Source: a virus
Virus record (IMG/VR): IMGVR_UViG_3300023184_004051
Coordinates: 1 to 64,000 of that record
Length of the DNA stretch: 64,000 nt
Strand: one strand, 5' to 3'
In this document: positions 18,218 to 35,465 of the stretch, piece after piece
Layout of the letters: every line of letters begins with the position of its first letter
Position numbering within the stretch: position 1 is the first letter of the stretch
Notes under the pieces: generated by a model
What the model saw: only the letters and a program-made list of their open reading frames with translations
Told to the model about the DNA's origin: nothing
The model's database searches: none
Made by a program: the position numbers and the translations under genes

Positions 18218-18606
18218 CCTACGCCAATCCGAACTACGACGGCACGAACGACTTTTTTTTACCTGAGGATGTCATCCTCATTGACCAACAACTTGCTTTA
18301 GCAATGAAGCCCCCTGCGTGGGCGAAAGACGGAGAGTGTCGAGCGCCGAACGCAGCGAACCTAGACAAGTTCTTTCCCGAAAGCACGAAGCACGGTGGCA
18401 ATCACCTAAAGCCTGCCCGTGAGATGTGCCTCAGATGCCCTGTGCGCTACGAGTGTTTGGAATACGGGATAGACGAACCTTGGGGGGTTTGGGGTGGTCA
18501 TTCACCAAGCCAGCGCCGTCGCATCATTTCCCTAGTGAAAAATGGTAGTAGCCTATGGGAGGCTAGCCAAGTCATAGATGCACGGAGTAGGGATGCCAGA
18601 GGATAA
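18214..18606 (+). CDS. WhiB family transcription factor
   Basis: W...GEC, FFP, CLRCPVRYECLEY, GVWGGHSPSQRRR. Confidence 0.92.
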   Translation: MTYANPNYDGTNDFFLPEDVILIDQQLALAMKPPAWAKDGECRAPNAANLDKFFPESTKHGGNHLKPAREMCLRCPVRYECLEYGIDEPWGVWGGHSPSQRRRIISLVKNGSSLWEASQVIDARSRDARG

Positions 18607-20221
18607 AGAGGTTTTACCACAGGTAGATAACTTCACCGAACTGGGTGCTACAGGTCTGTGGCGCACAGGTGGCTTCGTCATTGACGACATTCTGCCTCAA
18701 CTGCGAGGCAAGCAGGCTCAAATCGCTTACCGCGATATGGCTGAAAACGACCCGATTATTGGCGCAATCCTGTTCGCAATCGAGCGAGTCATCCTTCAGG
18801 TGGACTGGCGTGTAGACCCGTTTGACGACATCACTGACGGCTTGCCTCCTTTGGATGCTGATGTCAAAGCCGCAGCGTTCGTGCAAGAGTGCATTGACGA
18901 TATGAGCCATTCGTGGCACGAGTTGATGATTGCCATCTGCTCGTTCTTGACCTACGGCTGGTCATACTTTGAGATTGTCTACAAACAGCGCAAGGGGCCG
19001 AACCAAAAAGACCCCGCACTGCGTTCCAAGTTTAGTGATAACAAGGTCGGCTGGCGCAAGATTGTGATGCGAGCGCAGGACTCCCTGTGGCAATGGCAGT
19101 TTGACGAAAGCGGCGGCATCAAGGCGATGGTTCAGCGTGACCCCACGACAGGTCGCCTGAATGTCATTCCAATCGAGAAGTCGCTACTTTTCAGAACAAC
19201 CGCCGCTCGTGGAAACCCTGAAGGCCGCTCCATTTTGCGTTCAGCGTTCAAGGCTTGGTATTACAAGCGGCGCATCGAAGAGTTTGAGGCTGTCGGCGTT
19301 GAGCGTGACCTCGCCGGATTGCCTGTCGGTTATGTCCCTGCTGAATGGATGGCATCTACCGCTACGGCTGCTGAAAAGGCTTCATTTTGGGCGATGCAGA
19401 GCATTGTTCGTGGTGTAAAGCGCAACGAGAGCGAAGGCATCATCCTGCCGATGATGTTTGACGAAAACGGCAAGCAACTCGTTGACTTCAAGTTGCTGAA
19501 CTCAGGTGGCAGTCGTCAGTTCCAAACCGGAGCGATTATTGACCGCTACAACAACCAAATCGCAATGACCTGCCTTGCTGACTTCATTATGCTTGGTCAC
19601 GAAAGCGTCGGTTCGTTTGCTCTCGGTGCTTCCAAGATTGACTTGTTTATGGCTGCGGTGGAAAGTTGGGTGCGCCTGATTGCCGAAGTGTTCAACAGCC
19701 ACGCCATTCCACGCCTTATCGCTCTGAACGGCTTGGACACATCTCGTTGCCCCACCCTCACTTACGGTCAGGTGAACGCTATTGACCTGAATGAGTTGGG
19801 TGGCTACCTCTCTAACCTCACTTCAGCACAGTTGCTCACGCCAGACAACAACTTGGAGGAATACCTGCGAGAAATCGCTGGACTGCCCGGCTTCCGCCCC
19901 GATGCCGAGGGAACTGCTGAAAACGCACGCTACGCCGACGGACAAACTGCCCCCGAACAAGCAATGACTGAGCCAAAGAACTTTGTTGGCGTGTCATCAG
20001 CAAGCGCAGGTGCGGTTGCAACTCCAAACCCCGGCACGAAGGTCAAAGCCCCCCAAAATGCACAGGGCGGCAAGAACGACCAAAGTGGCGGTAGTGGAAA
20101 CCAAACGGATATCTCATCTGCCGGATACACGGGAGAAGCACCTCCATCTGAGAAGGGGCCGACGAAAAACACCACCGGACAGAATGGCCCCCTGACGAAC
20201 AATCAAGGCTCAACAACGTGA
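18593..20221 (+). CDS. Portal protein (DUF935/Mu gp29-like)
   Basis: YGWSYFEIVY, NPEGRSILR.A..AW, GVERDLAGLP, GSFALG; low-complexity C-terminal tail. Confidence 0.9.
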   Translation: MPEDKEVLPQVDNFTELGATGLWRTGGFVIDDILPQLRGKQAQIAYRDMAENDPIIGAILFAIERVILQVDWRVDPFDDITDGLPPLDADVKAAAFVQECIDDMSHSWHELMIAICSFLTYGWSYFEIVYKQRKGPNQKDPALRSKFSDNKVGWRKIVMRAQDSLWQWQFDESGGIKAMVQRDPTTGRLNVIPIEKSLLFRTTAARGNPEGRSILRSAFKAWYYKRRIEEFEAVGVERDLAGLPVGYVPAEWMASTATAAEKASFWAMQSIVRGVKRNESEGIILPMMFDENGKQLVDFKLLNSGGSRQFQTGAIIDRYNNQIAMTCLADFIMLGHESVGSFALGASKIDLFMAAVESWVRLIAEVFNSHAIPRLIALNGLDTSRCPTLTYGQVNAIDLNELGGYLSNLTSAQLLTPDNNLEEYLREIAGLPGFRPDAEGTAENARYADGQTAPEQAMTEPKNFVGVSSASAGAVATPNPGTKVKAPQNAQGGKNDQSGGSGNQTDISSAGYTGEAPPSEKGPTKNTTGQNGPLTNNQGSTT

Positions 20222-20381: not shown

Positions 20382-22463
20382 ATGGAACAAATGAACGTCA
20401 TTTCTGCCATCACGGATATTGACCTTTCCGAAGTTATGGTGAACCCCGCATTGCCAACTGATGTGTGCGAAGCGGCAGGCGAACTGCTGAAAAAGGGTTG
20501 CTACAACGCAGACCTCCTTGCAATCTCCGACGAGGAAGGCGACACCTCTCTCGTCATCGTTCCAAACTGGCCGACGAGAAAGCGTCTATTCCGTTCCGCC
20601 CCTAGTGAAATCCTTTCCCCCGATGCAGAGCGTCGTTTGATTTCTCGCAACATCGCTAAGGGACTTGCCGACGAAGCCCACCCCTTCACCAAGAGTGTCA
20701 ACGACTTCGGCGGCGCTCACCCCTGCACCGTTTGTGGTTCAGTTTTGGAAAAGTCAATGTGCGAGCCTTTGGACAAAGCCATCGGCTTCCCTTTCACCTT
20801 CGCTATGTCCCCCGTTTCCCCTGATGAGAACGACATTGTTGAGGATGAGAGTTCAGAGGACAGCACGACGGACGGTGCGGTTCAGGTGAAACTTGACCCA
20901 GCAACCGTCGCCGCAATCCTTCAAGCGGTTCAGGCAGCGAATGGTGATGAGGACAGTTCCTCGTCAAGCACTTCCTCGTCGTCATCCTCGTCTAGTGAAA
21001 TGGATGGGGAGAGTTCGTCAAGCAGTTCATCGGTTGATGACAGTGACATCTTGGGTGAAAACTGGAAAGACGGTCTTGACCCTTGGCAGGTTCAACTTGC
21101 TGAAAGCCTTGACGAAATGGTTGAGGATATGGGTCGTGTTCCGACCACCGACGCTTCATACACAGATGTTTCACCATACGCAGGGCAGAACTGTGGCACT
21201 TGCATCGCAATGGGCGAAAGCGGTTGCGATTGGGTTGCTGTTTCTTGCTCGCCTGAGGGTTGGTGCAAGTTCAATGTGACCCCTGTTCTCCTTCGTGCGG
21301 CTGGTGAAAACGAGCAGTATTACAAGGCTCGCAAGGCGGCATCGCCAGATGAGCAAAAGGCAGCGCCCGAAGTTTCACCAGAGAAGCAAGACACTTCCGA
21401 GGACACGAGCGACGAAAGCACTTCGTCAGGCGGTCAAGACCTCGCCCAAGGTGAAATCGAGAAGGGTGGTCCCGGTTCAGGCCCACAACCCGGTCACGCC
21501 TTTTATGGCAACCAATACCAAGCCGGTTCAGGTGGCGGTGGTGGAGCCGACAACTGGGGCGACAAGAACAATAGTGAAAAAGCCTTAGCGGATGTAAAGG
21601 CTGCCGATTACTTGACCGTTTGGTCTGACGGTCCAATGACCGACACCGCAGCAAAGGTGATGGAAGCCGAAAGTCGCCACCCTGATATGGAAGCGGCATA
21701 CCAAGGCAAAGAGACAATGAGCAACGATGAGCGTTCAGCAGATGCCATTCCAAAATGGCTCGTGAACCAAGCGACTCCTAGAGATTTGGACATTTTGACT
21801 GACCACAACTTCCACTCGTCAGTTCGCTACATCCAATCCCAACGACCTGACCTCGTTGCCAAGTCGGTTGGTGAAATCCAAAAGGACAGCCCAACCGTTG
21901 AGGGCGTTCACGTTGATGGCGTTATTGGCGCAGTTGGTGTTTTGCCAAAGTTCGTTCCTGTTGAGTTGGACATCATTGAGGAACAGCAGCCCGAAGTCCT
22001 CGTTGCCGCCAAGTCTGCTGAAATCCCCGGCACAATCCAAAAGTCAGATGAAAAGCGATACACGCTCGGCCCTTGGTATGTTCCAAACCAGAAAGACGCT
22101 CACGGAGAGTGGACTGACCCTGAGGAACTCCAAAAGGCACTTTGGGGCTATGTCGAGAGCGGTGACCGTGACATCCGACTTCAGCACAATGTCAATGTCG
22201 TTGCCGGTAAGTGGGTAGAAGCAATGATGTGGCCTCACGCAGTTGAGGTTCCAATGCTGAAAGCCGACACGCAAGAAATCGTCAAGACCACTTTCCCCGC
22301 CGGAACTGCCTTCTTGGGTGTTCAGTGGGAGCCTTGGGCTTGGGAACTCGTCAAGAAGGGCGAAATCCGAGGTTTCAGCATCGGTGGCACAGGCTCACCT
22401 ATTGAGGTTGACCTGCCATCGGAGTTTGACGACCCCAACCATTTCCCGTTGTTTGGGAAGTAA
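20382..22463 (+). CDS. Multidomain prohead protease (C-terminal XkdF/Peptidase_S78_2-like domain)
   Basis: EKRYTLGPWYVP...DAHGEW...LQH...W..VKKGEIRGFSIGG; also a Ser-rich run, a HiPIP-like Cys motif and one GHxFxGNQY tag. Confidence 0.85.
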   Translation: MEQMNVISAITDIDLSEVMVNPALPTDVCEAAGELLKKGCYNADLLAISDEEGDTSLVIVPNWPTRKRLFRSAPSEILSPDAERRLISRNIAKGLADEAHPFTKSVNDFGGAHPCTVCGSVLEKSMCEPLDKAIGFPFTFAMSPVSPDENDIVEDESSEDSTTDGAVQVKLDPATVAAILQAVQAANGDEDSSSSSTSSSSSSSSEMDGESSSSSSSVDDSDILGENWKDGLDPWQVQLAESLDEMVEDMGRVPTTDASYTDVSPYAGQNCGTCIAMGESGCDWVAVSCSPEGWCKFNVTPVLLRAAGENEQYYKARKAASPDEQKAAPEVSPEKQDTSEDTSDESTSSGGQDLAQGEIEKGGPGSGPQPGHAFYGNQYQAGSGGGGGADNWGDKNNSEKALADVKAADYLTVWSDGPMTDTAAKVMEAESRHPDMEAAYQGKETMSNDERSADAIPKWLVNQATPRDLDILTDHNFHSSVRYIQSQRPDLVAKSVGEIQKDSPTVEGVHVDGVIGAVGVLPKFVPVELDIIEEQQPEVLVAAKSAEIPGTIQKSDEKRYTLGPWYVPNQKDAHGEWTDPEELQKALWGYVESGDRDIRLQHNVNVVAGKWVEAMMWPHAVEVPMLKADTQEIVKTTFPAGTAFLGVQWEPWAWELVKKGEIRGFSIGGTGSPIEVDLPSEFDDPNHFPLFGK

Positions 22464-22469
22464 TCCCAA

Positions 22470-24377
22470 ATGCCACAGCCGCCCGATTTCACTACCGACG
22501 GTTTGCTCAACAAAGCGAACTCCGGCTTAGAGCCTCCACGCACGAAGCAACCTCTAAAAATCACCGACAGCCACCCTCAGTCAAACGGTGCAGTTTGGAT
22601 GTCATCGGGGCAAGCGCCACGCATCGGTGGTGGAACTGTGTCGTTCAAGGATGTGAGCGGCCCCGGCACTCCCTCGCACCCGATTTGGACTGTCACGAAG
22701 CCGGATGGTGAAAAGACGGTCTTTGAGGGTCTAGGCATCAAAGATGGCAGACCTACCGGGATTGACGCAAGCGGTCACGGCAACTTTCAGGCGACCATCA
22801 CCAAGCCAAATGGCGAGAAGGAAGTTATCCATCAGCAAGGCGCTACAGGAACTCACACTCGCTTCAATGCTCGTGGTCAACTTGTGACCCGTTTCACCAC
22901 AGGGGCAGGTCGCTTTACGGGTCGTGTGACAGGCGCTCACGCACCGGCGGTCAGCAATGGAAAACACGCCTTCCACGGCAATCAGTTCACCGCCCACGGC
23001 ACAGATGTTCCGGTGCAAGGCCCCCAAGCAAGAAACAAGTCAGTTGACGCAAATACACCCGAAAGGCCCCTAATGCTAAACGATAGTGAAACCCTCCAAT
23101 GGCTCCGCAAAGCGATGGACACTCCAAAATACCCAGATGTCCAAATGCCAAACAACTTGAACAGCACCAACAACTTCGTTGAGCGTGCAAAGGTGCTAGA
23201 GGCAAAGGCTCGCATCCTTGACGATATGCACGAGAACCGTGCTTTTGATGGTCGTGAACCATTCACCGACGAGGACTACGCCGCTTTTTCAGCGGCCCAC
23301 AAGGACTTGGCAGACTCCCACCGTGTTCTCGGAGAGGACTTGAAGGCAGCAATGCCTGATGCACTCCAAGCGATTTCAGCACACGGCAACGCAATGGCCT
23401 ACCACAACGGGGCTTCCAAACTTGCCGAAATGATGGAACCATCTGCTGAACTTGGCGAACGCAATCTGATGTGGCCGCATATGGACAGCAACCAGTTCCG
23501 TTTTGGACACAAAGGCCCTTGGGACACCGAGGAAAAGAACTGGCGAAAGGCTCACCAAGCGTTCATCGCCTCACAATACGCAGCCCGTCAAACCGCTTTT
23601 GACACGGGTGTAGTGGAAAAGGGTATGGATGAGAGCCTTGCCGACATCCTTCGTCACGACAAGGGCCACGATGACTGGCACGCAATGCACGGTGATGAGC
23701 CTTGCACTTCAGAAGCCGACTGCGCCGCTAAGCGAGCCAAGTATGCCGAGGTGAAAGCCGAGGAAGCAGCAAGTGTTTCCAAAGGTGGCCCAGAGGAAGC
23801 CCCACGCCGAGGCAAATACACGATGCGTGATGCCCAGATGAAGTATCTGCGAGAGCGTATGGCGGAGCGCAGGGCTTCTGGTGAAAAGGCAGGCGATGAG
23901 GGTCGGGGAACCGGCTCACACACCGTTGGCGACTTCCCCGGACACCCATTCCGAGGCAACCAATACTCCAAGTCAGTTGAAGTGGTGGAAAAGGGCGATG
24001 TCCCCGGTCACATTTTCCACGGCAACCAATACATCACAGGAACCACCTCAATCCCTGACAACGTTGGTGGTCGTGACTTTGATGCCAAGTCCACCCTTGG
24101 TCAAATCGGGCAAATGAACATCCTGAGCGTGAGTGGTGGAAAAGTCCACTCTATTCACGACACTGATGGTGCAGTCGTAGGTTTGGAACTCCCCGTCAGC
24201 AGCGGCTACAAGGTGCGTGTTTTCCTCGCAGATGACGACACCTACACCGTTCAGCGTGTCCACCGTGACAATGTGAAGGGTGAGCAAACGGGCGTGTATG
24301 CCGACGAGGTTGGTGAAAGCGTCTACCAAGCCGGTATGTACAAGTCCAATCCATTCGGCGGACACTCTCCCCGATAA
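22470..24377 (+). CDS. Modular putative capsid-internal polyprotein (3 GHxFxGNQ tags)
   Basis: Tags at about 22959, 23928 and 23991; His-rich helical segment; distinct C-terminal domain. Confidence 0.75.
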   Translation: MPQPPDFTTDGLLNKANSGLEPPRTKQPLKITDSHPQSNGAVWMSSGQAPRIGGGTVSFKDVSGPGTPSHPIWTVTKPDGEKTVFEGLGIKDGRPTGIDASGHGNFQATITKPNGEKEVIHQQGATGTHTRFNARGQLVTRFTTGAGRFTGRVTGAHAPAVSNGKHAFHGNQFTAHGTDVPVQGPQARNKSVDANTPERPLMLNDSETLQWLRKAMDTPKYPDVQMPNNLNSTNNFVERAKVLEAKARILDDMHENRAFDGREPFTDEDYAAFSAAHKDLADSHRVLGEDLKAAMPDALQAISAHGNAMAYHNGASKLAEMMEPSAELGERNLMWPHMDSNQFRFGHKGPWDTEEKNWRKAHQAFIASQYAARQTAFDTGVVEKGMDESLADILRHDKGHDDWHAMHGDEPCTSEADCAAKRAKYAEVKAEEAASVSKGGPEEAPRRGKYTMRDAQMKYLRERMAERRASGEKAGDEGRGTGSHTVGDFPGHPFRGNQYSKSVEVVEKGDVPGHIFHGNQYITGTTSIPDNVGGRDFDAKSTLGQIGQMNILSVSGGKVHSIHDTDGAVVGLELPVSSGYKVRVFLADDDTYTVQRVHRDNVKGEQTGVYADEVGESVYQAGMYKSNPFGGHSPR

Positions 24378-24439
24378 ACCAACTTTTAGAAATAGTGGGA
24401 TAGCATTATCCCCATAAGCCTCTACGAAAGGTAGAACCT

Positions 24440-25195
24440 ATGTCAGAAATCAGCAACGCAGATGTGGCCGAATGGGTCGTTTCATTTTGGAAGCAAGCCC
24501 CTAGTGAAATCGCCAAGGGAGGCCCCGGTTCTGGCGAGGGTCCCGGACACCCATTTCGAGGCAACCGCTACACGGGTGGCGTTCAGTCTGCCGGTCACCA
24601 CGAAATGCGTGAACACTCTCGTGGCTGGGGTCACGGTCAGCATATGACCGGCGCTGCCGCTCGTATCGCCGCAGGTCGTGTTGCGCTTGCTCACGGTGAC
24701 CACGGACAGGCTCGCGAACACTTCAACGAAGCCGCCTTCCACGCTTCACAGGCTTCATCACAAATCGCTCACGGCGCTGGTAGCCGTGAACTTGGTCACC
24801 ACGCAGAGGCCCTGTATCACGCTGCTCACCACGCTGGCGATGCTGCTGAAAAGGCTGGCTACTTGACCAACCGCCACGGCGAGGCTATTGGCAATGGCCG
24901 TGAAACCACTGTTGTGACCCGTGACCAACTGCTGAACACTGAGGCTGGTCGTGCCGTTGGCTCAACAAGCAACTTTGACCGTGGTGGTCGCTTCGGCCCC
25001 GTTGACACTCGCCTCATCCCTGAGGGTCGCTCAACTGACCGTGTTCTTACGACGGCTGAACTTAGCAATGCCGCCCAAGGCGCTCGTGACAACGCTGAGC
25101 GTGCCGCCAACCTTGCCGGTGCTGCCTCGCACGCTGCGACTTCTGCTCGTGGCTTGATGAGTCCAACCGCTATGGGTCGCGCAGCCGGTCAATAA
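24440..25195 (+). CDS. Tagged His/Ala-rich protein
   Basis: AKGGPGSGEGPGHPFRGNRY followed by HxxAAxxH helices. Confidence 0.75.
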   Translation: MSEISNADVAEWVVSFWKQAPSEIAKGGPGSGEGPGHPFRGNRYTGGVQSAGHHEMREHSRGWGHGQHMTGAAARIAAGRVALAHGDHGQAREHFNEAAFHASQASSQIAHGAGSRELGHHAEALYHAAHHAGDAAEKAGYLTNRHGEAIGNGRETTVVTRDQLLNTEAGRAVGSTSNFDRGGRFGPVDTRLIPEGRSTDRVLTTAELSNAAQGARDNAERAANLAGAASHAATSARGLMSPTAMGRAAGQ

Positions 25196-25207
25196 GGGAT
25201 TTCACTA

Positions 25208-25666
25208 ATGAACATTTCCAAAGAAGGTGCTGGCGCTTTGGCATCAGCACTTGCTACTTGCCTTGCAAACGCAACGATTATGTATCACCGCGTTCACGGC
25301 TTTCATTGGAATGTCGTTGGCCCAGACTTTCCGCAATGGCACGACAAGTTTGCTGAAATCTACGATGATGTCTACGGCTCACTTGACCCCATTGCTGAAA
25401 ACATCCGCAAAATCGGTGGCGTAGCCCCATTCCGCTTGTCGGACTTGGCTGTGCGCGCCACCGTTGCTGATGACAATGTTGGCGATTACTCGCCACAAAG
25501 CCTTATCGGTAGTTTGCTTTCCACCAATGCTGGCGTTTTGGACAGTCTTGACCGGGCTTTCCAAATCGCCACCGACACTAATCAGCAAGGCATTGCCAAC
25601 TTCATTGCAGAGCGCATTGACGCTCACCAGAAATGGAACTGGCAACTGTCTGTCTCTAGGGGATAA
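25208..25666 (+). CDS. dps: Dps / ferritin-like DNA protection protein
   Basis: HGFHWNVVGPDFPQWHDKFAEIY...D.IAENIR...HQKWNWQL. Confidence 0.92.
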   Translation: MNISKEGAGALASALATCLANATIMYHRVHGFHWNVVGPDFPQWHDKFAEIYDDVYGSLDPIAENIRKIGGVAPFRLSDLAVRATVADDNVGDYSPQSLIGSLLSTNAGVLDSLDRAFQIATDTNQQGIANFIAERIDAHQKWNWQLSVSRG

Positions 25667-25672
25667 CACCAA

Positions 25673-27610
25673 ATGGACAATCTTGACCAGTCAATCATTT
25701 CGTGGGTCATCAAGACCGTCGGCTTCGTCACCAAAGGCGGGCCTGAGGATACCCCTGAGGGCGGCAAGATGTCTTGGCAAGAGTGGAAACTCAAACGATA
25801 TGCCGAGCGGCGCACCGCAGAGCGGCGTGCGCGCTACGCCAACAACTCATCAGGCGGACACACCGTTGGTGATTATCCGGGTCATCCCTTCCGTGGGAAC
25901 CAATACCAAAAGGCCCTTACTGAAATCTTGAAGGGCGACTTGCCCGGTCACACTTTCCGAGGCAACCAATGGACTTCCCTTGGTGGTAAAGCCGATGCAC
26001 TTAGCGGTGCAGTTCAGAAGTTGTCTCTCAGTTCCACCCCAGAGGAAATCCGTAGTCTTGCTCGTGTTCACCAAGGGCTTGCGTTTCAACACGTCAACGT
26101 TGTCTCACAACACGAGGAAATGCCTTACCTGACGACCCCGCAGGAAATCGGTGCTGAAGCCCACCAAGACCTTACGAACAGTTCTTCGATTGCACAAGGC
26201 GTTCACGACGAAGCCGCCGAAGCCCACCAACACGCCGCCGCAGAACTCAACCACGTTGCTGAAATGATAGAAAGCGGCAGAAGTCAGGGAAGTTTGCGCC
26301 TCGCAATGGCTACGGCTAAGGGAGCAAGTCTTTTAGCCGCCGATGCCAGCCGTGAAGGTGACAAAACCGCATTGCCTCACCCTGTAGGCGACCCAGAGTT
26401 CCGTGACCACGAGGCCAAGATGGATGCTGAAATGGAAGCGGAATACCAAGCGAAGTTTGGCAAGTCCGTTGATTTCACTAAGGGCGACCTCCCCGGACAC
26501 CCTTTTAGAGGGAACCAATACGCCACTGGTCAAGAGTTGTCAGACAAGGCAACTAACCTCCGCAACACCGTTGAGAGGGGCATTGACCCTTACAGCGCCA
26601 ACCAATATTCGGTCACATCTTTTCACAACGATATTGCCGACAGGCATCAAAACTTGGCCGCAGACCACAGAGAAGCCGCTGAAGCACTACAACAGTTGCA
26701 AAGTCAAGTAGCGAATGAGGGGAATGTCGCTTTGACGGAACACCTCACCCGTGAAATCGGGAGCCACAGAGAGGCCGCCGCTATTCACCAACTTGCCGCC
26801 GACAACCACGACAAAGTGATTGACGCTGCAATCAACCCTCGTGGTGCTGATTGGTCACAACAAGCGGATGCTGCTGCCGATGCCACCCGTGCCGCTGACC
26901 GTGCTAGCGCAAAGGCGGCAATCGTAGAGAGACAAAGAGCAATGATGCCAACGCTAAAGTCAATCTCTTTCACTAAAGGCGATTATCCGGGACACCCTTT
27001 TCGTGGCAACCAATACAGTCACGGTGAAGCCGCCGCCGCTTTGCGTGACCTTGCTAAATCAGCACGAGCCGCCAATGCGAAGTCTCGCCTAAAGACCGAT
27101 GTTTTGGGCATTTCCGGCGCACGCTCGGACAAGACGGGGAACTACAACCGTAGCGTTCCCACCTACTCAACGCCTCGCTACCTGCAAAGCCAGACGGAGA
27201 ACGCAAAGGAACACAACGAATACATTGCCTCTCACGCCGAAGCCCTTGCAAAGCGTATTGAGAGCGACACTTCCAAGCCAGTAGAGCAGCACATTGCTGA
27301 TTTACAAGATGCCGTCAGTGGCTTGCGTAGTCAGGGTCAGTTCCACACCAGCGTTGACAACTACGACACGGGTGGCAACTACTACCGTTCAGCAAACGCA
27401 GGACAAGGCATTGTTGACCACCTCTCGGGTATGAAGTCTGAAGCACCGGCTTCCGAGCCTGACGAGCCACAGTATGCAGGTGGCACGACTAGTGAAATCG
27501 CCGCAGGGCTTCAAGAAGGTATCCGTAGTGGGCGTATTAGCACCCCAATGGATATGGATAACTACCTTTACGAGAGCGGCTTTGACGGCGACCCAACCGA
27601 ACTGTTCTAG
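25673..27610 (+). CDS. Modular putative capsid-internal polyprotein (4 tags)
   Basis: Tags at 25868, 25931, 26480 and 26975; the last three precede His/Ala-rich helical modules. Confidence 0.78.
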   Translation: MDNLDQSIISWVIKTVGFVTKGGPEDTPEGGKMSWQEWKLKRYAERRTAERRARYANNSSGGHTVGDYPGHPFRGNQYQKALTEILKGDLPGHTFRGNQWTSLGGKADALSGAVQKLSLSSTPEEIRSLARVHQGLAFQHVNVVSQHEEMPYLTTPQEIGAEAHQDLTNSSSIAQGVHDEAAEAHQHAAAELNHVAEMIESGRSQGSLRLAMATAKGASLLAADASREGDKTALPHPVGDPEFRDHEAKMDAEMEAEYQAKFGKSVDFTKGDLPGHPFRGNQYATGQELSDKATNLRNTVERGIDPYSANQYSVTSFHNDIADRHQNLAADHREAAEALQQLQSQVANEGNVALTEHLTREIGSHREAAAIHQLAADNHDKVIDAAINPRGADWSQQADAAADATRAADRASAKAAIVERQRAMMPTLKSISFTKGDYPGHPFRGNQYSHGEAAAALRDLAKSARAANAKSRLKTDVLGISGARSDKTGNYNRSVPTYSTPRYLQSQTENAKEHNEYIASHAEALAKRIESDTSKPVEQHIADLQDAVSGLRSQGQFHTSVDNYDTGGNYYRSANAGQGIVDHLSGMKSEAPASEPDEPQYAGGTTSEIAAGLQEGIRSGRISTPMDMDNYLYESGFDGDPTELF

Positions 27611-27619
27611 GAGAACTAA

Positions 27620-28216
27620 ATGAGCAACCCTTTTCACCCCGACAGCCTTGACCCAATCGGCGCTGAGGCTATGCGTATTCTCAAAGGCGATTATCCGGGA
27701 CACCCATTTCGGGGTAATCAGTACACCGAAGGCTCGCTCTCGGATACCTCAACACGCTTATCCTCATTTGTGGCTAAAAACCGTAGCAACCTTTCACCTT
27801 CGGATGCACAGGACATTGCAGACAGCCACGATGCACACGCCGAGATGCACGGCTTTGCCGCCAAGCAACTTCGTGACCACATAGATGCGATTACCTCGCC
27901 AGAGAACCTTCACCGTGACGGTGAGGCAACCAAGGCGCAGGTTCAGGCCACGCTGAAGCAAGCCGCCGAACTCACCAAGGCAGCCGAAGCCCACGAAAAG
28001 GCGGCGGATGCACACGGCAAAGCCAGCGACACGGTGCTGAAATCACAGGGCGAGTGGGGTGGTCGTTTGGGTGTAAACGAAAAAGCCCCGACTACTTCGC
28101 AAGTTTCTGCCGCTTCTAGTGCCGCTTCCAAAGCCTCTGTTGCTGCTGAAAACATTGTTCCCTTCCCAGATGCCGGAGTTCAGTTGCCACTTGGCGCTCC
28201 CTACTACGGCGGATAG
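27620..28216 (+). CDS. Tagged His/Ala-rich protein
   Basis: LKGDYPGHPFRGNQY; AAEAHEKAADAHGKA. Confidence 0.75.
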   Translation: MSNPFHPDSLDPIGAEAMRILKGDYPGHPFRGNQYTEGSLSDTSTRLSSFVAKNRSNLSPSDAQDIADSHDAHAEMHGFAAKQLRDHIDAITSPENLHRDGEATKAQVQATLKQAAELTKAAEAHEKAADAHGKASDTVLKSQGEWGGRLGVNEKAPTTSQVSAASSAASKASVAAENIVPFPDAGVQLPLGAPYYGG

Positions 28217-28284
28217 CGGTACGCAGTACAAGTATTTCCAAATAACGGTGTAGCATTTCAGCAGAACCCGAAAGGATTAGCCAT

Positions 28285-29769
28285 ATGATTAGAGTTCCGG
28301 GCGACGACCCAACGACTGTATCTTTCATTCAGAAAGGTGTCGAAGCAAACAACGGGCGTATTGCCTCCGAGCAAGTCACGAAGGCCGCTGCCGCTGAAGT
28401 GGTCGCTCGCACCGCTTTTGAGAACGCCAACTACCGTTTGGAAAAGGCTACCGAAACTCTGAAGGCTAGTGAAATCGCTTACCAAGAGGCCGTTGCCAAA
28501 TCAGCGTGGAACAAGGAACAAGTGCGAGCCGTCTACAACAACGCTCTCGCAGGCTTCCGTGACGCAGACCGCAATGCTGAAATCGCCGCAGAACAGTTTT
28601 CTTTGGCTAAGGCTGCTCTCGGTGGACTTCGTTCAGTCGCTAAGGCTGGCATCAGCAACGGCAACGAACTGAAGGCCGCTGTCAAACTCGCTAAGACCCC
28701 AGAGGAAAAGAAAGCCTGTGTGGATGCTGCTGAAAAGTTGAAGTTGGTCTTTTTCCTGCCTAAGGGTTGGAAGGCCGAAGCCGACAAGATGGTTGCAAAG
28801 TCAAGTTTCACCTCAGCCGAGCGTGCATCGTTCGTTGAAGCCGAGCGCAAGGCTCTGTCCATCAAGGACAAGCAACCGCACATCGCTTTGGAAATCTTGA
28901 ACAATGTTGCTGATGCCTACGCTATAGAGGCTGGCGATGCCAAGCAAAAGGGCGACCTCGCTACTTTTCAGCGCCTCGCTGCCGAAGGTGGTCGTGTGCG
29001 TGGTTTGGCTACCCAAATCCGCCAAGAAGGTTTTGACAACAAGTATCCCGTTCAAGATGTCAAAGACATCACCAACCTCCCTTTGGAAGTCGTTGGTAAA
29101 ACTGCAACTACTAACATTACGAAAGAAGTGATTATGCCCGATGCAAAGATTTTAGTCGTTTGCCCTTCCTGTGGTGGCGACGGCCCCGCCTCTTGCGAGA
29201 TGTGCGGTGGTGAAAAGATGGTTCCTGAGGCTGCATACCACGCCGCTTGGGGCAACAGCGACTATGACGACGAGCCGGGAATGGCCTTCACCACGAAGTC
29301 CCTCTTGACCCGTGACTTCCAAAAGTCCGTCGGCTACCAGAACTACATTTTCACTAAGGGCGGCCCCGGCTCAGGCGAAGGCCCCGGTCACCCGTTCCGT
29401 GGAAACCAGTGGACTGGTGGGCAAAGCGCAGGTGGTCGTCTTATCCACGAACGCGAGGGCCACAAGGTCACGATGAAGCGTTATGAGGAAGGCGCTGCCG
29501 CTCACAAGGCTGCTGCTGAAGCGCAGAAGGCTATCGCTCGTGGTCACGAGAGTCAGGGTCGCCACGCTAAGGCCGCAGAAGCCCACCGTGCCGCCGCCGA
29601 ACACCACAAGGCCGCTGCCGGTTTCCACGAAGGCATTGCCGGTATTCACCAAAAGGTTCACGGCGACGAAACTGCTCGCTCGGAACACCGTGGCGAAGCC
29701 GCCAAGCAACGTGTGTATCAGGGTCGCTCCACCGCCGAAGCCGCACGCTTGGAAGCCTTGGCTGCCTAG
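28285..29769 (+). CDS. Modular helical protein with zinc ribbon and a tagged His-rich C-terminal domain
   Basis: CPSCGGDG...CEMCGG; TKGGPGSGEGPGHPFRGNQW; HRAAAEHHKAAAGFH. Confidence 0.75.
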   Translation: MIRVPGDDPTTVSFIQKGVEANNGRIASEQVTKAAAAEVVARTAFENANYRLEKATETLKASEIAYQEAVAKSAWNKEQVRAVYNNALAGFRDADRNAEIAAEQFSLAKAALGGLRSVAKAGISNGNELKAAVKLAKTPEEKKACVDAAEKLKLVFFLPKGWKAEADKMVAKSSFTSAERASFVEAERKALSIKDKQPHIALEILNNVADAYAIEAGDAKQKGDLATFQRLAAEGGRVRGLATQIRQEGFDNKYPVQDVKDITNLPLEVVGKTATTNITKEVIMPDAKILVVCPSCGGDGPASCEMCGGEKMVPEAAYHAAWGNSDYDDEPGMAFTTKSLLTRDFQKSVGYQNYIFTKGGPGSGEGPGHPFRGNQWTGGQSAGGRLIHEREGHKVTMKRYEEGAAAHKAAAEAQKAIARGHESQGRHAKAAEAHRAAAEHHKAAAGFHEGIAGIHQKVHGDETARSEHRGEAAKQRVYQGRSTAEAARLEALAA

Positions 29770-29786
29770 TCAGTTCCAAAACTCAC

Positions 29787-29842
29787 GGCTAGCCGCCACT
29801 ACTGAAATCCCGAAGTATGGGATAAAGTAGTGGCGGTTAGTC
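29787..29842. repeat. 17-bp inverted repeat overlapping a putative -10 box
   Basis: GGCTAGCCGCCACTACT...AGTAGTGGCGGTTAGTC with inner ATCCC/GGGAT; TAAAGT at 29823. Confidence 0.7.
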
Positions 29843-29859
29843 ATTTCTAAGGGGAACCA

Positions 29860-30147
29860 ATGCGTAATCCATTCGAGACAGCAGAACTTACGAAGTCGCT
29901 GGGAGTGTGGATTGCGAAGGCTCGTGAGGTGGAAATCCACAAGGCGGGGAACGCACAAGGTCTGATTGACTGGTACAACAACGGTGCTGATGGTCAAATC
30001 AACTGGGGCGAACACGGGGACTTTGATGCCTGTGTCGCTATTGCTGGAAAATACCTTGACAACCCCGAAGGGTTTTGTCAGAACCGTCACATTGACGCAA
30101 CCGGCGAACCTGCTGGAAAAGCACCCGGCGAAGCACAGGAAAAGTAG
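29860..30147 (+). CDS. Small head-associated domain protein
   Basis: INWGEHGDFDACV...KYLDNPEGFCQNRH..ATG resembles a motif recalled from actinophage head proteins (unverified). Confidence 0.7.
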   Translation: MRNPFETAELTKSLGVWIAKAREVEIHKAGNAQGLIDWYNNGADGQINWGEHGDFDACVAIAGKYLDNPEGFCQNRHIDATGEPAGKAPGEAQEK

Positions 30148-30153
30148 TTCCTG

Positions 30154-30351
30154 ATGGAAGTTAGCGACTTTTTCAGTGACAACCTCGCGCCTAAGACCGC
30201 TAAGACTTTGGAAGCGGAGAAGTTCACCAAGGCTACGGCGAAAGGTTCTTGGGACTTCAGCACCAATGGGCTACTCAAAGTAGTCATTCCTACCCCTGTT
30301 TCCAAAACTAAGTCGCTGGATTTCAGCACGTCCGCCCTTCTCTCGGAGTAG
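30154..30351 (+). CDS. Small protein made of repeated DF(S/F)xxxL motifs
   Basis: DFFSDNL, DFSTNGLL, DFSTSALL. Confidence 0.6.
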   Translation: MEVSDFFSDNLAPKTAKTLEAEKFTKATAKGSWDFSTNGLLKVVIPTPVSKTKSLDFSTSALLSE

Positions 30352-30354
30352 GAA

Positions 30355-33300
30355 ATGTTCCAACCGAACTTCGTCACCTTCACCAACACTGACATCGCAG
30401 GTCGTGAACCCCTAGAGGGGAAGTTCATCGGCAACCAAAATAACGGTTTCTCGTTTGTTCGATTTGCTGATGGCTCCGGCGGTTTGGAAAAGGAGATGAA
30501 GGACTGGGTTGGGAACAAGACGGGTCGGCTCTACCCTGCTGAAATCTTGGCAGCGCAGGAGTATCTGGCTGGTCGTGTGGGCAAGGCAATGAACGCCCCC
30601 ATCCGTGATTGCTATTTCACTAGCCCCACGAAGGTCATTATGCCCTTCATCAACGGAACGCCTGCAAACGAAAAATACGAAACTGAACTTCCAAAAGGCG
30701 CTCAGGGAACAGCACTCAAACTCTTTGACTACTTCGTGGCAAACGCAGACCGCCGCCCCAAGAACTGGATTACCACATCAGATAATCGCATCGTCGGCAT
30801 TGACCACGCTCTGTGCAACTTCCGCCCACGCACTCCACAACCGGAGTTCGTTGCTGAAATGTGGAATAACGGCTTGACACTTGAAGGTTTGGAACGCCTC
30901 CGACCAAAGTTCGTCGCCCTTGCCAACGAGTTCAGCACATTGGGTATGGCAGACAAGCACCAAAACCTGATGGACAACTTTGACCGCCTGTTTGCCGCTT
31001 TCCAAATCCTTGACCAAGTAGCCGTTGTGGTGAAAGACGCACTCACGCCACCGAAGGGTGTGCAAGAAGCGGCTCAGCGAGCATTGGGCTGGTTGAAGGA
31101 AGGGAAGGCTGGCTCTGGTTTCACCCCTGTGGGTCGTAAGCGTGCATCTGACCTCGCTAACGCCCACCCTGTTTCACTAGACACCCTGAAGCGGATGAAG
31201 GCATACTTTGACCGCCACCAAGTAGACAAGAAGGCAGAGGGCTTTCAGCAAGGCGAGGATGGCTACCCATCTGCGGGTCGAGTCGCTTGGGATGCTTGGG
31301 GTGGTGATGCCGGTTGGTCGTGGGCAAAGTCAGTTTTGGAAAGCGAAGTCCGCAAAGAGGAAATCGGTCACGAGTTTCACGGTAATCAGCACACGGGTGG
31401 CATCGGAGGCGGAGGGGAAGCACCACGCCAAGTAGACCCGGGGCGCAATCAAGTCGGCCCCGGAAGGAACCAAGCCTCAGTCGCACCGGAGGCTGCTGAA
31501 AAGCCTGCCGAACCAAAGGAAACAGCAGAGAAGCCAAAAGAGCCTGAGAAGCCCGAGGACAAGAAATCCGAGGACAAGAAGCCTGAAGGTCAAACCAAGA
31601 AGGAATGGGCGCAAGCACAAGCGCAGAAAATCCTTGATGGTGAAATGCCGACCATCCCGCCAGACCAACTCCTTGACTTCTTTCGCCAAGTCACCGAACT
31701 TCCTAAAGAGTTCCAAACCGTTGACGCTACTGAAATCAAGACCGGCACAGAAGGGCCGAGAGGCCCACTGTTGGGCGACGAGGGAGTAGGCGGTGGTATT
31801 TCCCGCAAGGAGATGCCGCAAATCACAGAGGAACAACGCCCAGAGTTCCTAAGTATGCTGGAAACTGAACACGGCGTAAAGACCACCGAGGAACGGGTTG
31901 ACCCCACCACGCTCTCCCCCTACCAAAAGGAGATGGTTGCTGGAAACATCGGTGGCATCATCGCCAAAAACCCGACGGGATTGCCAGACAGCAGCCGTAT
32001 TCTCGTGTCTAGCGATGGCATCGTGATTGACGGTCACCACAACTGGGCGGCGGCAGTTGCCCTGCACGAAGGCTTGGATAGTCACCCCACACTTCCAATC
32101 TACCGAGTGGATATGCCCGCTTCCAAACTCATCCCCATTGCCACAGCGTTTGGTGATGCAAAGGGCAATCCCCGTATGGGAATGGTTCGCAAGGCCGAAC
32201 TGCGTCGTGTGCTGAAAAAGGCATACGGCAAGAACGCTCACGGGGCTACCAAGTCTATTTTGGAAATGATTTCAGCCCACGCTCGCAAGCGTGTCAAAAA
32301 GTCGTTCAACTACACAAACTTCATCCCCAAAAAGGATGAGCAGTCGTGGGGCAACTTAGGTGAAGGCATCTCCGTTCCAAAACAGGAAGCCGCTAGCCCT
32401 GCTGATGACTTGGCGCTCCGAGCCTTGAACCTGCGTGAAAAACAGCGTTATGAAAGCGCCGGATTTATGCACGAGCGAGCCGCAGCGGCATATCGAGCGC
32501 AGGCTGAAAAAGCAAGTGATGAAGCCGAACGCACATTGCTAGAGAGCAAGGCGAAAGACCAAGACTACGAAGCCAAAGTTGCACATTTCACTGACCAGAT
32601 GGGAGAGGGACACTCCCCCTCCGAGGTCAACAAAGGCGACACACCCGGACATCCTTTCCACGGAAACCAATGGACAGGTGGGAAGGGCGGTGGTGAAATG
32701 CCTGACAACATTGCCGTTTTCGCCCGCAACCTCAAAGAGTTCTACGACGCTGGTGGAAAAGTAGAGCGCATTGACAACTACGACAAAATGCAGGAAATCC
32801 AAAATCAAGTTCAGGACATTATGAGGAAGCCTGAATACAAGCAAATGGATGCTCGTCACCAACAAGGCATCCGCTTCTTAGCCGAAGCCGCCCTTCACGC
32901 CAAAGCCGGTGTCAATAACGCAAATAGTGAAAACTATGGCATTACTTCGTCACACTTGTTCGTTGCTCGCGATAAAGACGGCGAGATGGTATCTGCCGTC
33001 AACATCACCACTCACGAAAGTGGCGTTCGTTTGGGCGACCTCAAAGGCCCTGAAGTTCCACACGCCTCTATTGGCTATCTCGGCTCTACGGGAACGATGC
33101 CGGGTGCGGCAACAGCCCTTATGGAGCAGGCGCTCCAACTTGCCGCTGAAAAGGGCTTGACCGTCACCTACGAGACAACCCCTGACAGCCAGCCATACCA
33201 CGACAAGTTGGGTGTCCAAACGCTCAACTACCGAGGTCTACAAGGGTTTTCACCAGAAAGTGCAGCCGAAGTCGCAGCACTTCCAAATCCAAAACCGACC

Positions 33301-34101
33301 ATCATCAAGTCCAAAATCACCAAGGGCGATGTGCCGGGTCATCCGTTTCGTGGTAATCAGTGGGAAACAGGGGAAGGCGGTGGTGAAAACCAACGGTTTG
33401 AGCGATTTCCAACGCCTAACGAGGTAGGCGGAGAAGCCCACTTCAACTACATTTGGACCCGTTCACGCAGTTGGTATCCCAACGAAGGTCAAGACCCCAC
33501 AAAAGCCCTTGTTCCAAGAACACCAACTCACGATGATTTGATGAACGCTGCTAGGCAATGGAAGGGCGACCCAAAAGTTCTACGGGCAATGTTGCCAGAG
33601 ATTGTTGGTGGAATAGGCAACCCACCTTGGGTTTCGTCTGTGCAAGAGGATGACCGTGCCGCCTGTGCCGCATTACTCAACGAAGTCACCACGAACGCCC
33701 AAGAAAGCACCGGAACGCTCTGGCGTGGAATGACCCTTGGTAGTTCCAACTCCACGGTAGAGGAAATAATGCAACGCTTCACGGTTGGCGAAAAAACCGA
33801 TGTTCCAATCTCCGGCTTTAGTGAAAACCGCAACCACTCAATGAGGTTTTCTGTCGGCGGGGCGGGGCGTGAACGACAACCGGGGGTTCCGGTAATGTTT
33901 GCCCTTAGTTCGGGCGCACAAGGACTACCGCTAGACGGCAATCTTTATCGTGGGCAGTATGCCTACGAGAAGGAGTGGGTCGTTGGTGGTGAAATGCGAG
34001 TGGACAAGGTTGAGACAATGGGTTCAGGCAACAAGCAATACATCAAGGTTTCTATGACCCAGACACAACCACTAACAGCACCGGAAGGTGGCTTCCGATG
34101 A
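30355..34101 (+). CDS. Polyvalent protein: HipA/PI3-4-kinase-like, WDAWGG domain, ParB-like, GNAT and ADP-ribosyltransferase
   Basis: DYFVANADRRPKN...IDHAL; RVAWDAWGGDAG; MPQI...ILVSSDGIVIDGHH; GAATALMEQA...YHDKLG; LWRG...SGFSE...EKEW; 3 tags. Confidence 0.8.
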   Translation: MFQPNFVTFTNTDIAGREPLEGKFIGNQNNGFSFVRFADGSGGLEKEMKDWVGNKTGRLYPAEILAAQEYLAGRVGKAMNAPIRDCYFTSPTKVIMPFINGTPANEKYETELPKGAQGTALKLFDYFVANADRRPKNWITTSDNRIVGIDHALCNFRPRTPQPEFVAEMWNNGLTLEGLERLRPKFVALANEFSTLGMADKHQNLMDNFDRLFAAFQILDQVAVVVKDALTPPKGVQEAAQRALGWLKEGKAGSGFTPVGRKRASDLANAHPVSLDTLKRMKAYFDRHQVDKKAEGFQQGEDGYPSAGRVAWDAWGGDAGWSWAKSVLESEVRKEEIGHEFHGNQHTGGIGGGGEAPRQVDPGRNQVGPGRNQASVAPEAAEKPAEPKETAEKPKEPEKPEDKKSEDKKPEGQTKKEWAQAQAQKILDGEMPTIPPDQLLDFFRQVTELPKEFQTVDATEIKTGTEGPRGPLLGDEGVGGGISRKEMPQITEEQRPEFLSMLETEHGVKTTEERVDPTTLSPYQKEMVAGNIGGIIAKNPTGLPDSSRILVSSDGIVIDGHHNWAAAVALHEGLDSHPTLPIYRVDMPASKLIPIATAFGDAKGNPRMGMVRKAELRRVLKKAYGKNAHGATKSILEMISAHARKRVKKSFNYTNFIPKKDEQSWGNLGEGISVPKQEAASPADDLALRALNLREKQRYESAGFMHERAAAAYRAQAEKASDEAERTLLESKAKDQDYEAKVAHFTDQMGEGHSPSEVNKGDTPGHPFHGNQWTGGKGGGEMPDNIAVFARNLKEFYDAGGKVERIDNYDKMQEIQNQVQDIMRKPEYKQMDARHQQGIRFLAEAALHAKAGVNNANSENYGITSSHLFVARDKDGEMVSAVNITTHESGVRLGDLKGPEVPHASIGYLGSTGTMPGAATALMEQALQLAAEKGLTVTYETTPDSQPYHDKLGVQTLNYRGLQGFSPESAAEVAALPNPKPTIIKSKITKGDVPGHPFRGNQWETGEGGGENQRFERFPTPNEVGGEAHFNYIWTRSRSWYPNEGQDPTKALVPRTPTHDDLMNAARQWKGDPKVLRAMLPEIVGGIGNPPWVSSVQEDDRAACAALLNEVTTNAQESTGTLWRGMTLGSSNSTVEEIMQRFTVGEKTDVPISGFSENRNHSMRFSVGGAGRERQPGVPVMFALSSGAQGLPLDGNLYRGQYAYEKEWVVGGEMRVDKVETMGSGNKQYIKVSMTQTQPLTAPEGGFR

Positions 34102-35465
34102 ACCTCACCAAGTATTACGAATGGGGCTTTGACGAGCCGTTGTTCCCACGAGACGGCTCAATCACCAAGGGCGACCTTCCCGGACACGTATTCCACGGCA
34201 ATCAGTTCGTTGAGGTCGGTGGCGCTGGCACAACCACTTCAGCACGGAAGCCACGAGCCAAATCCCCCACCATCGCTGGTCTACCGAAGGGCTGGAAACT
34301 GAAGTCCAAGGATGGAAGCCGCATTGTCCTGACTTCCAAAAACGGCAACACGGCCATCTTTGCCACCCGCTCACGGGGTTGGAAGCCTGCTGAAAAGTAT
34401 TCGCAGATGGTTTTGGAAACTATCGAGAACCAAACCTCCGGCAAAACTGTCAACTTCGTTGCTGAAGCAAATGTCGGTAGAGATGCACTTGCTTATGTGA
34501 CAAGCGCAGACCCAAATATCGTAAATATGGGGCGCTACTCGGAGGTTGTCCAAACCCTTGACCATCAGCGTGAGCAGTTTGAGAAGCAAGTGACGAATAC
34601 AGCACTTGTTGGCGCAGACTTGTCGCTGGCGCTGATGGAAATGGCAAAGGGAACGCCTGAGCGTGAGGAACTTATCACCAAGATGGCGGAGTTGTATGAC
34701 CAACAGCCACGCACCGAAGCGATGACGAATAACCTCCACAACTCCTGCGCCTCCTTCGTTTCACCACAGAAAATCATTGAGACAATGGTGGCGCACGAAC
34801 TCGGCCACTCGGACTTCTTTTCCGAGGGTCACAAGATTAGTGAAATCTATCCCGCACTCACCGAAGCGGTGCAAGCGGCGGGGGTAGCAAATCGTTGGGC
34901 TATCTCTGGTAGTTATGCTCGTTTCACCGATGCAAGTGCGTGGGAGGCTAGCCAACGGGATGCTTACGCGGAAGTCCTCAGGGGAACACCAAGAAAATAC
35001 ACAGGCTTTGATGTGGGCAACGGGGTCGTTGTTAGCCGTGCTGATTACATTGACTACCGGATGAAGGAGGGGAGCGGAAGTTATCCTGTGAGCGTTTCCA
35101 CCCAAAAAGTATTGCGTGAGATTGGCGTGACGACTTACGGTTCCACCAAACTCCAAGAGGTTGTTGCCGAAGCACGAGCGATGTATTCCGTGCCACAACT
35201 TCCAAAATCAGCCCTGACGATGCGGATTGCCGGAATACTTGGTTGGGATAAGACAAACAAATCTGCTAAACTGTGGTTTATGAAGTCTGAGGATGACCTT
35301 CCACCTGTGAGCGCCAACGAATATTTGGACAAAGACGGCAACTTGATTGCTCGCGTCTTTGACAATGTTGATACCTCGGGCGTTGCCATCACCATCGTCG
35401 GGACAGTCGTGTTCCTGCCTGATGGCACGACGATGAGCCTTGCTGATTACAACGCAACTCACTAA
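34098..35465 (+). CDS. Tagged zincin-like metallopeptidase
   Basis: TKGDLPGHVFHGNQF; VAHELGH (HExxH); TYGSTKLQEVVAEA supplies the likely third ligand. Confidence 0.78.
   Translation: MNLTKYYEWGFDEPLFPRDGSITKGDLPGHVFHGNQFVEVGGAGTTTSARKPRAKSPTIAGLPKGWKLKSKDGSRIVLTSKNGNTAIFATRSRGWKPAEKYSQMVLETIENQTSGKTVNFVAEANVGRDALAYVTSADPNIVNMGRYSEVVQTLDHQREQFEKQVTNTALVGADLSLALMEMAKGTPEREELITKMAELYDQQPRTEAMTNNLHNSCASFVSPQKIIETMVAHELGHSDFFSEGHKISEIYPALTEAVQAAGVANRWAISGSYARFTDASAWEASQRDAYAEVLRGTPRKYTGFDVGNGVVVSRADYIDYRMKEGSGSYPVSVSTQKVLREIGVTTYGSTKLQEVVAEARAMYSVPQLPKSALTMRIAGILGWDKTNKSAKLWFMKSEDDLPPVSANEYLDKDGNLIARVFDNVDTSGVAITIVGTVVFLPDGTTMSLADYNATH

Follow-up and report, generated by a model that had tools for sequence, protein, structure and literature searches.

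A repeated peptide heading the modules of putative head-interior proteins in an uncultured phage, with upstream junctions that may be cut by the phage head protease

A recurrent peptide of 13 residues is found in an array of open reading frames (ORFs) in the head-gene region of IMGVR_UViG_3300023184_004051, a 108,670-bp contig of an uncultured virus estimated by CheckV to be 87% complete. The window analyzed here is the stretch from position 1 to position 64,000 of this contig. Within it, a Mu-type portal gene (18578-20221, + strand; Pfam Portal_Mu, E 3e-32) is followed by the gene for a 693-aa protein ending in an XkdF protease and by seven more ORFs extending to 35465. Next in order are an Rpf-type transglycosylase gene, three DNA methylase genes with a PD-(D/E)XK nuclease gene, and then the genes for a scaffold-like helical protein (43421-44197, +), a small head protein, the major capsid protein (44668-45675, +; phrog_1005, E 5e-96) and the siphovirus tail proteins. 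The array comes right behind the portal gene and shares a strand with the scaffold-like and capsid genes, which follow about 8 kb further downstream. The recurrent peptide, G-D-x-P-G-H-x-F-x-G-N-Q-[YWFH], is referred to here as the tag; the portal protein does not carry it.

The window was scanned in six frames with the pattern H.[FY].GN[QRKH]. and 15 matches were observed, all of them in frame on the + strand between 21480 and 34208, with none elsewhere in the window. Chance is expected to contribute a mean of 0.1 match (0 or 1 in each of 30 base shuffles of the whole contig). The matches are located in eight adjacent + strand ORFs spanning 20382-35465 (20382-22463, 22470-24377, 24440-25195, 25673-27610, 27620-28216, 28285-29769, 30355-34101 and 34098-35465), and the tag His codons are at 21495, 22965, 23943, 24009, 24548, 25883, 25949, 26498, 26993, 27701, 29389, 31369, 32650, 33340 and 34185. 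A preliminary description of this DNA had reported 15 copies in eight head-region proteins, and the scan agrees with its positions, which begin at the Lys or spacer in front of each tag. Also as described there, Lys precedes 12 of the 15 tags, in three of the 12 by way of a GGPGSG spacer. Of the remaining three, two follow G-H-T-V and open a tandem pair each, and the tag at 22965 is degenerate (VSNGKHAFHGNQF). Among the window tags, different codons are used in 48% of codon pairs for the same residue, and nucleotide identity between copies averages 66%, with a maximum of 87%. Since the copies differ at 48% of synonymous positions, selection acts on the tag peptide and not on its DNA, which bears out the earlier reading. 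The tags stand at the boundaries of modules, and in AlphaFold models the tag and the linker that follows it are disordered (pLDDT ~30), with well-folded modules beside them.

The preliminary description had placed the motif only in genes from the protease to 35465. This is true of the window but not of the genome, because the whole contig contains 22 copies, and the seven outside the window are found at 90071-98696, at the N-termini of small genes whose leaders include, for example, LLYPLTK/GD (the slash marks the junction upstream of the tag). Short leaders before K/GD form recurrent families (NELLYPLTK, S-x-SNYPV[AS]K, W-x-x-A-[ST]-EILK and I-x-x-W-[VI]-x-[VF]-AK), which come from positions 90071-98696 of this genome and from many other loci (L045, L063, L069, L079, L080 and L114). 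By analogy with the T4 targeting sequence, the leader may carry information of its own.

The first ORF of the array (20382-22463, +) encodes a 693-aa polyprotein with an acidic, Ser-rich N-terminal part, K/GGPGSG and a tag, a middle domain and a C-terminal head protease. Its tag 1 (GPQPGHAFYGNQY; 21480-21518, +) follows EIEK-GGPGSG. The protease domain (22035-22403, +; residues 552-674 of 693) is of the XkdF type (Peptidase_S78_2; PF14550, E 1.4e-14, 54.7 bits against a cut-off of 24), and its QH and GFS motifs are common to the XkdF ORFs L009, L043 and L093. The second ORF (22470-24377, +) encodes a 635-aa protein with three tags, namely the degenerate tag 2 (22950-22988, +), which has no preceding Lys, tag 3 (23928-23966, +), which is of the GHTV/GD type and the first of a tandem pair, and tag 4 (23994-24032, +), which follows VVEK; modules of this protein are found again in other tagged proteins. 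A 251-aa protein (24440-25195, +) then consists of a 26-aa leader, K/GGPGSG with tag 5 (24533-24571) and a His/Ala-rich helical part, for which the protein atlas gave no usable match. The following gene (25208-25666, +) encodes a Dps/ferritin-like protein (PF00210, E 3.5e-14) that lies within the array, has no tag and is kept at the same place in the relatives G003 and G026. Ferritin-like proteins are the classic cargo of encapsulins, which have the same fold as the capsid.

Tags 6-9 (25868-25906, 25934-25972, 26483-26521 and 26978-27016) precede His-rich helical modules in a 645-aa protein (25673-27610, +). They are followed by a 198-aa protein (27620-28216, +) made of a 22-aa leader, K/tag 10 (27686-27724) and a helical module, and by a 494-aa protein (28285-29769, +) in which K/GGPGSG and tag 11 (29374-29412) stand before a His-rich C-terminal module. 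In total, six or seven of the window tags precede acidic, His/Ala-rich helical modules. Such regions, with A-x-x-H-x-x-A-A-x-x-H repeats, are often seen after tags (L082, L118, L029, L054 and, in the window, 24440-25195, 25673-27610 and 29374-29769), and in L082 and L118 the region is located between an XkdF-like protease and a scaffold-like tail. From its sequence, it may be a head-core or capsid-binding unit. Basic DNA-condensing internal proteins were also considered. Because 13 of the 14 predicted mature modules have a pI of 5.2-6.6 and are mostly acidic to near neutral, such a role is unlikely.

The largest tagged protein, a 1248-aa polyprotein (30355-34101, +), is composed of a kinase-like module, tag 12 (31354-31392, +), a ParB-like module, tag 13 (32635-32673, +), a GNAT module, tag 14 (33325-33363, +) and a C-terminal module. 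The GNAT label of the preliminary description is borne out by the predicted fold (32704-33306, +), which has a pLDDT of 80-93 and matches GNAT toxins and acetyltransferases in Foldseek (E 2e-4, probability 1.0). The other labels have a narrower basis: a faint Pfam PI3_PI4_kinase match (E 0.015) for the kinase-like part, and for the C-terminal, ADP-ribosyltransferase (ART)-like module an R...S...ExE pattern recognized by eye, in a region where the model is of low confidence and Pfam gave no match. The ParB-like label has only the DGxxIDGHH motif (DGIVIDGHHNWAA) in its favor, while a PDB sequence search returned no match for either the ParB-like or the ART-like module. Homologues of this polyprotein carry PI3_PI4_kinase, ART-PolyVal, MuF and GNAT domains.

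The last tagged ORF (34098-35465, +) encodes a 455-aa protein with a 24-aa leader, K/tag 15 (34170-34208) and a zincin-like module containing HELGH. The earlier zincin label receives moderate support. Twelve homologues all keep the HExxH motif, and zinc metallopeptidases (zincins) make up nearly all of the best VIA matches, but Z scores are only 5-6.8, Foldseek gave no significant match, and the protein atlas offered only weak peptidase leads. The module here is a stand-alone gene with a leader and K/tag, while in relatives it is an internal module of polyproteins at 64-68% identity; it also makes up the C-terminal part of polyproteins P0001-P0004. When all eight tagged proteins were compared with Pfam and PHROGs, the matches were limited to the XkdF domain and one PHROG of unknown function, and at a Pfam threshold of E <= 5 only the faint kinase and GNAT matches were seen.

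The preliminary description had proposed a delivery system working without a MuF protein. This stands for the present genome, since PF04233 (MuF) gives zero matches in the whole contig (87% complete) at E <= 10, and tblastn with the MuF protein of the relative G026 revealed no MuF remnant. A 95-aa ORF (29860-30147, +) is homologous to the N-terminal domain found in the MuF-containing protein of G026, with the MuF part absent, and no MuF was found in the complete relative G003. The proposal does not extend to the family, as 16 of 27 other contigs with the tag have MuF, in many cases within the tagged protein itself. Thus, tag and MuF coexist, and the tag is not a replacement for MuF.

The kinds of protein that carry the tag were assessed by comparing 104 non-redundant tagged ORFs of other phages with Pfam. 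Head parts among them include nine portals, five MuF proteins, four XkdF proteases and two DUF2213 proteins. The payload domains are PI3/PI4-kinase-like, 2H phosphoesterase, Acb1, pentapeptide repeats, ART-PolyVal, exotoxin-type ART, topoisomerase IB, HipA-like, GNAT, Zeta toxin, PBECR3 and NUDIX. Protease-scaffold fusions carry the tag as well, and its sequence stays the same in no fewer than four protease contexts and in several families of capsid and portal. Judged by these domains, the carriers are head-interior proteins together with the domain set of phage-type polyvalent proteins, so the earlier assignment of tagged proteins to the head interior is supported by the portal, MuF and protease fusions and by the polyvalent-type effectors. 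In some portals the tag lies in a C-terminal extension, before a further module (L246:6257-8275 in G013, and L008:2158-4533), and cargo can thus be fused to the portal itself.

Searches for the tag well beyond this contig had been suggested, with a check of how common it is outside phages; both were run, and the tag was found to be common in phages and rare among the listed matches from prokaryote genomes. At least 119 IMG/VR stretches match a degenerate DNA pattern for P-G-H-x-F-x-G-N-Q; among the matches listed, nearly all have the full motif, and there are 317 copies in total. In 596 Gb of prokaryote genomes, 120 matches were listed against ~280 expected by chance, and ~8 of those listed have the full motif, on contigs of Verrucomicrobiota, Acidobacteriota and Proteobacteria that include a provirus of Ideonella livida TBM-1 (L201, L054). 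Because only these ~8 listed matches carry the full motif, the motif is, as far as these sequence comparisons go, phage-specific. Of 1.84 billion cluster representatives, 2,489 match a profile of 32 columns built from 150 tag copies at E <= 0.001; 485 of these matches reach 1e-10 and 99 reach 1e-30, with up to nine copies in one protein. The consensus over 273 distinct copies is [VI]-x-K-G-D-[VLFY]-P-G-H-[PE]-F-[RH]-G-N-Q-[YWH]-T-x-G-x-G-G. Among 50,697 GenBank phage records, tblastn of three tag variants, which has low sensitivity with so short a query, matched Xanthomonas phage Rb1 alone (PQ569993). The Rb1 carrier gene is annotated as "internal head protein" (...VALD/GDFSGHPFRGNQH) and adjoins two genes, one annotated as a DarA N-terminal protein and the other as a very large ATPase (coding sequence of 6.7 kb). 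A megablast of 22 kb against GenBank phages gave no match.

No Pfam model covers the tag, and no published description of the peptide was found in literature on the motif strings, polyvalent proteins, the capsid targeting sequence, MuF or XkdF. DUF5872 was considered as a match for the tag and rejected, being a distinct small domain whose end lies ~8 residues short of some tags. DUF5872 (PF19197) is a recurrent upstream neighbor of the tag (P0025, P0027, P0029 and P0040), in the arrangement GTY-x-KPV-x-K/GD.

While the tag itself is nearly constant, the three residues before the tag Gly fall into discrete classes, namely x-x-K, [RK]-x-[LA], x-E-[FL], x-x-E, E-K-H, D and N. A single class is used in 76% of 156 multi-tag proteins, compared with 20% after shuffling, and on this comparison the junction classes are lineage-specific. 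The association with head proteases was assessed in 27 tag-bearing contigs of at least 40 kb, using six Pfam protease families. An XkdF protease is present in 10 of 13 contigs with K-type junctions and in none of 14 with other types (Fisher p = 3e-5, kinship ignored), and the three K-type contigs without it are incomplete. The co-occurrence with XkdF-type proteases, suggested earlier as a check, is therefore observed for K-type junctions but not for the other types, where other head proteases are found instead. Contigs with L-type junctions have Mu-like_Pro (G008, G027) or DUF2213 (G005, G013), and the N-type contig G016 has Mu-like_Pro. A T4-type S77 protease was found in one contig only, and there the tag comes after a leader of 15 residues, MTYVIVKPRFRKITE, that ends in I-T-E; the consensus of T4 gp21 is I/L-x-E. 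ClpP (PF00574) was seen in 0 of the 27 contigs and HK97-type S78 only as weak matches. The capsid of G008 and G027 belongs to the same family as that of the present phage (35% identity), yet these two contigs have a Mu-type protease and L-type junctions, which indicates that the junction class follows the protease and not the capsid.

Similar junctions are seen in proteins of the window at sites that have no tag. In the scaffold-like protein, hydrophobic-x-K/[SA] occurs at 6 of 14 Lys, compared with 12% of Lys proteome-wide, and these six candidate sites are kept in full in G003 and at five of six positions in G026. In the 693-aa polyprotein, LVAAK/SAEIPG stands directly before the protease domain. 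Both observations agree with the K/[SA] junctions noted earlier for the scaffold and protease. No literature on XkdF specificity was found.

These comparisons suggest that the array probably encodes head-internal polyproteins that are cut, directly upstream of a handle that is retained, by the head protease of the phage itself. The 15 kb between the portal and methylase genes would then encode proteins destined for the head interior, synthesized as polyproteins or as one module behind a 20-26-residue leader, every module being headed by the disordered G-D-x-P-G-H-x-F-x-G-N-Q-[YW] and a Gly-rich linker. The XkdF-type protease at the C-terminus of the first polyprotein would cut directly before the tag Gly, here after hydrophobic-x-Lys, and would thereby free the modules, strip the leaders and leave the same handle at the start of every mature piece. 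The junction would be fitted to the protease of each lineage, with the handle identical in all. Two proposals of the preliminary description gain support from the comparison with other phages, namely that the Lys-Gly junction behaves like a head-protease site and that the tag would stay on the downstream product.

Several observations weigh against this interpretation. With the six Pfam families, no head protease is found in about half of the contigs, among them G004 and G007, which are complete. L248, which has E-type junctions, also has no recognizable protease, and a second scan gave mainly loci that have no tag. Kinship confounds the association of junction with protease, and DUF2213 is not an established protease. 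There are also mismatches, in that a weak XkdF-like protein (L029) has an N-type junction and the XkdF protein P0157 mixes A and K junctions. In the present genome, seven tagged genes are far from the head genes, and the enrichment of candidate sites in the scaffold-like protein is modest.

Because the junction varies with the protease of the lineage while the handle remains constant, the handle is expected to have a role that does not depend on the protease, which would most likely be the docking, retention or exit of cargo in the capsid. The positions of some tags bear on this role. Six genes start exactly at M-G-D, and methionine aminopeptidase normally takes off a Met that precedes Gly (PMC10052503), so that these genes would yield the same N-terminus without any protease. 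Small proteins of this kind are found in L074, L084 and L040 (the IMG/VR contigs G017, G020 and one other), and four of the six (three in L074, one in L084) have [DS]-[YW]-[EA]-K-N-P-[PA] near the C-terminus. Tags are also found at the extreme C-terminus, as GxVGDxxGHPFRGNQYxx-stop. Since tags occur at both extreme termini and the candidate scaffold sites have none, the tag would be more than a cleavage determinant. A tentative extension is that the tag acts as a portable, protease-independent cargo address, read by a conserved feature of tailed-phage heads (the capsid inner face, portal or core) and also needed for retention or exit. If so, any protein with the 13-residue handle could be loaded into, and delivered by, very different phages.

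It is rather unlikely that the tag serves solely as a downstream (P') recognition element for head proteases and is idle after the cut. The tag does always abut the junction, is disordered and followed by a flexible linker, and is found at protease-scaffold and portal-cargo junctions as well, as such an element would be. However, a tag that opens (M-G-D) or closes a protein has nothing to release, candidate scaffold sites do without a tag, and proteases of differing families and P1 preference would all need to recognize one and the same 13-residue sequence.

Modules are reshuffled between ORFs of the close relatives G003 and G026, and this exchange at tags could indicate that the tag is a cassette boundary for module shuffling by recombination, comparable to the VENN-type pre-toxin motifs in polymorphic toxins, with no need for proteolysis. 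Copies with 48% synonymous differences and a mean identity of 66% are nevertheless poorly suited to homologous recombination, the peptide does not vary between phages of distant hosts, and the lineage-specific junction classes are left unexplained. We therefore regard this explanation as improbable. A zincin peptidase encoded in the cargo could also carry out the processing, a role that Iyer et al. 2017 (PMC5512222) proposed for such enzymes in polyvalent proteins, or the processing could be autocatalytic, with the head protease uninvolved. A zincin-like module is indeed present within the array, and some tag-bearing contigs have no detected head protease. Yet the junction class follows the head-protease family, many tagged arrays contain no detectable zincin, and autocatalysis would not produce lineage-specific upstream residues, which makes this possibility very unlikely. 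Finally, action of the tag in the infected cell, for example by binding a conserved host component or protecting injected proteins, would fit its extreme conservation across phages of Proteobacteria, Verrucomicrobiota, Acidobacteriota and probably Actinobacteria, which is unusual for phage-protein contacts, but is highly improbable given that portals, proteases and scaffold-like parts carry the tag and have no host task, and that the payload targets are unrelated.

Cleavage by the head protease upstream of a retained handle would place the array among known kinds of system, namely capsid-carried, protease-processed internal proteins and polyvalent proteins. What appears to be new, from the sequence comparisons, is a retained, near-universal header peptide and the adaptation of its junction to the protease. 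In phage T4, the internal proteins IPI-III and Alt are diverse anti-defense proteins with one short conserved peptide, and they are loaded into the prohead core and cut by gp21 (PMC3012670). The present array resembles T4 in having a short conserved peptide on diverse cargo and in its head-protease processing, proposed here and seen in T4. The T4 signal, however, is a ~10-residue N-terminal leader, placed upstream of the cut and lost, whereas the tag lies downstream of the presumed cut and would be retained, is repeated inside polyproteins and is common to phages with different protease families. Leaders in the tagged proteins vary, and the conserved peptide comes after the junction.

Polyvalent proteins combine many unrelated conflict domains in one polypeptide, are encoded beside virion genes, and have an assemblin-like peptidase that is always C-terminal (Iyer, Burroughs, Anand, de Souza and Aravind 2017, PMC5512222). 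The same traits are seen here. Unrelated domains are combined in one polypeptide in the 1248-aa protein, which has four modules, the array lies among phage late and virion genes, its assemblin-like peptidase (PF14550) is C-terminal, and MuF, ART-PolyVal, PBECR and zincin or zincin-like domains are found in both groups. Differences are that the XkdF domain can be N-terminal to the tag in other tag-bearing phages, and that PMC5512222 does not contain this peptide (neither "GNQ" nor "linker" occurs in it) and proposes zincin peptidases as the main processing enzyme. In phage P1, large anti-restriction (Dar) proteins are packaged via a terminal signal, and DarB's N-terminal 30 residues act as the capsid targeting signal (PMC9024508). 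DarA_N proteins also occur in the tag-bearing provirus G007 (Pfam DarA_N) and in Rb1 (record annotation), although no repeated internal signal copies have been described for P1. In the giant phages phiKZ and SPN3US, the prohead protease cuts ejection proteins and many head proteins, portal included, at A-x-E (PMC10052503). Tagged proteins likewise include many head proteins and portals with one short putative consensus site, but no conserved peptide downstream of the cut has been reported for the giant phages. Toxin domains of MuF-fused polymorphic toxins are predicted to travel in the head via MuF (Zhang et al. 2012, PMC3482391). Many tagged proteins similarly contain MuF, but the present genome has none and the tag occurs with or without it. 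The cargo-loading peptides of encapsulins are short and disordered, have a flexible linker, stand at either terminus and bring unrelated cargo into an HK97-fold shell. They share this layout with the tag but not its sequence, and capsid binding by the tag would be hypothetical.

How phages choose, hold and release the proteins they carry is known for a few model phages, each with a signal particular to it. The tag would be a single signal used by thousands of uncultured phages that differ in capsid and protease. It would supply a sequence rule for recognizing capsid cargo, including anti-defense enzymes, in metagenomes, would permit a direct test of cargo loading and processing, and is a candidate handle with which proteins might be loaded into the heads of phages in laboratory strains. 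In addition, the link between junction and protease predicts cleavage specificities for head-protease families with none on record.

Some further features of the window were observed outside the tagged genes. The portal protein (18578-20221) ends in a low-complexity, Gly/Gln/Thr/Asn-rich tail of ~100 residues (residues ~440-547), which is free of tags. The N-terminus of the scaffold-like protein (43421-43510, ETSGVDHPAHLTEGWVV) resembles the last strand of HK97-type protease domains (E-x-S-x-V-x-x-P-A) and could be the relic of a protease-scaffold fusion. Directly after the array, the gene at 35681-36295 encodes a protein with a hydrophobic stretch at its N-terminus, a linker rich in Thr and Pro and a transglycosylase domain of the Rpf type (PF06737, E 5e-10), and this protein is possibly a virion-associated wall hydrolase. 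Since the Rpf-type domain is typical of Actinobacteria, the host of this phage is probably actinobacterial.

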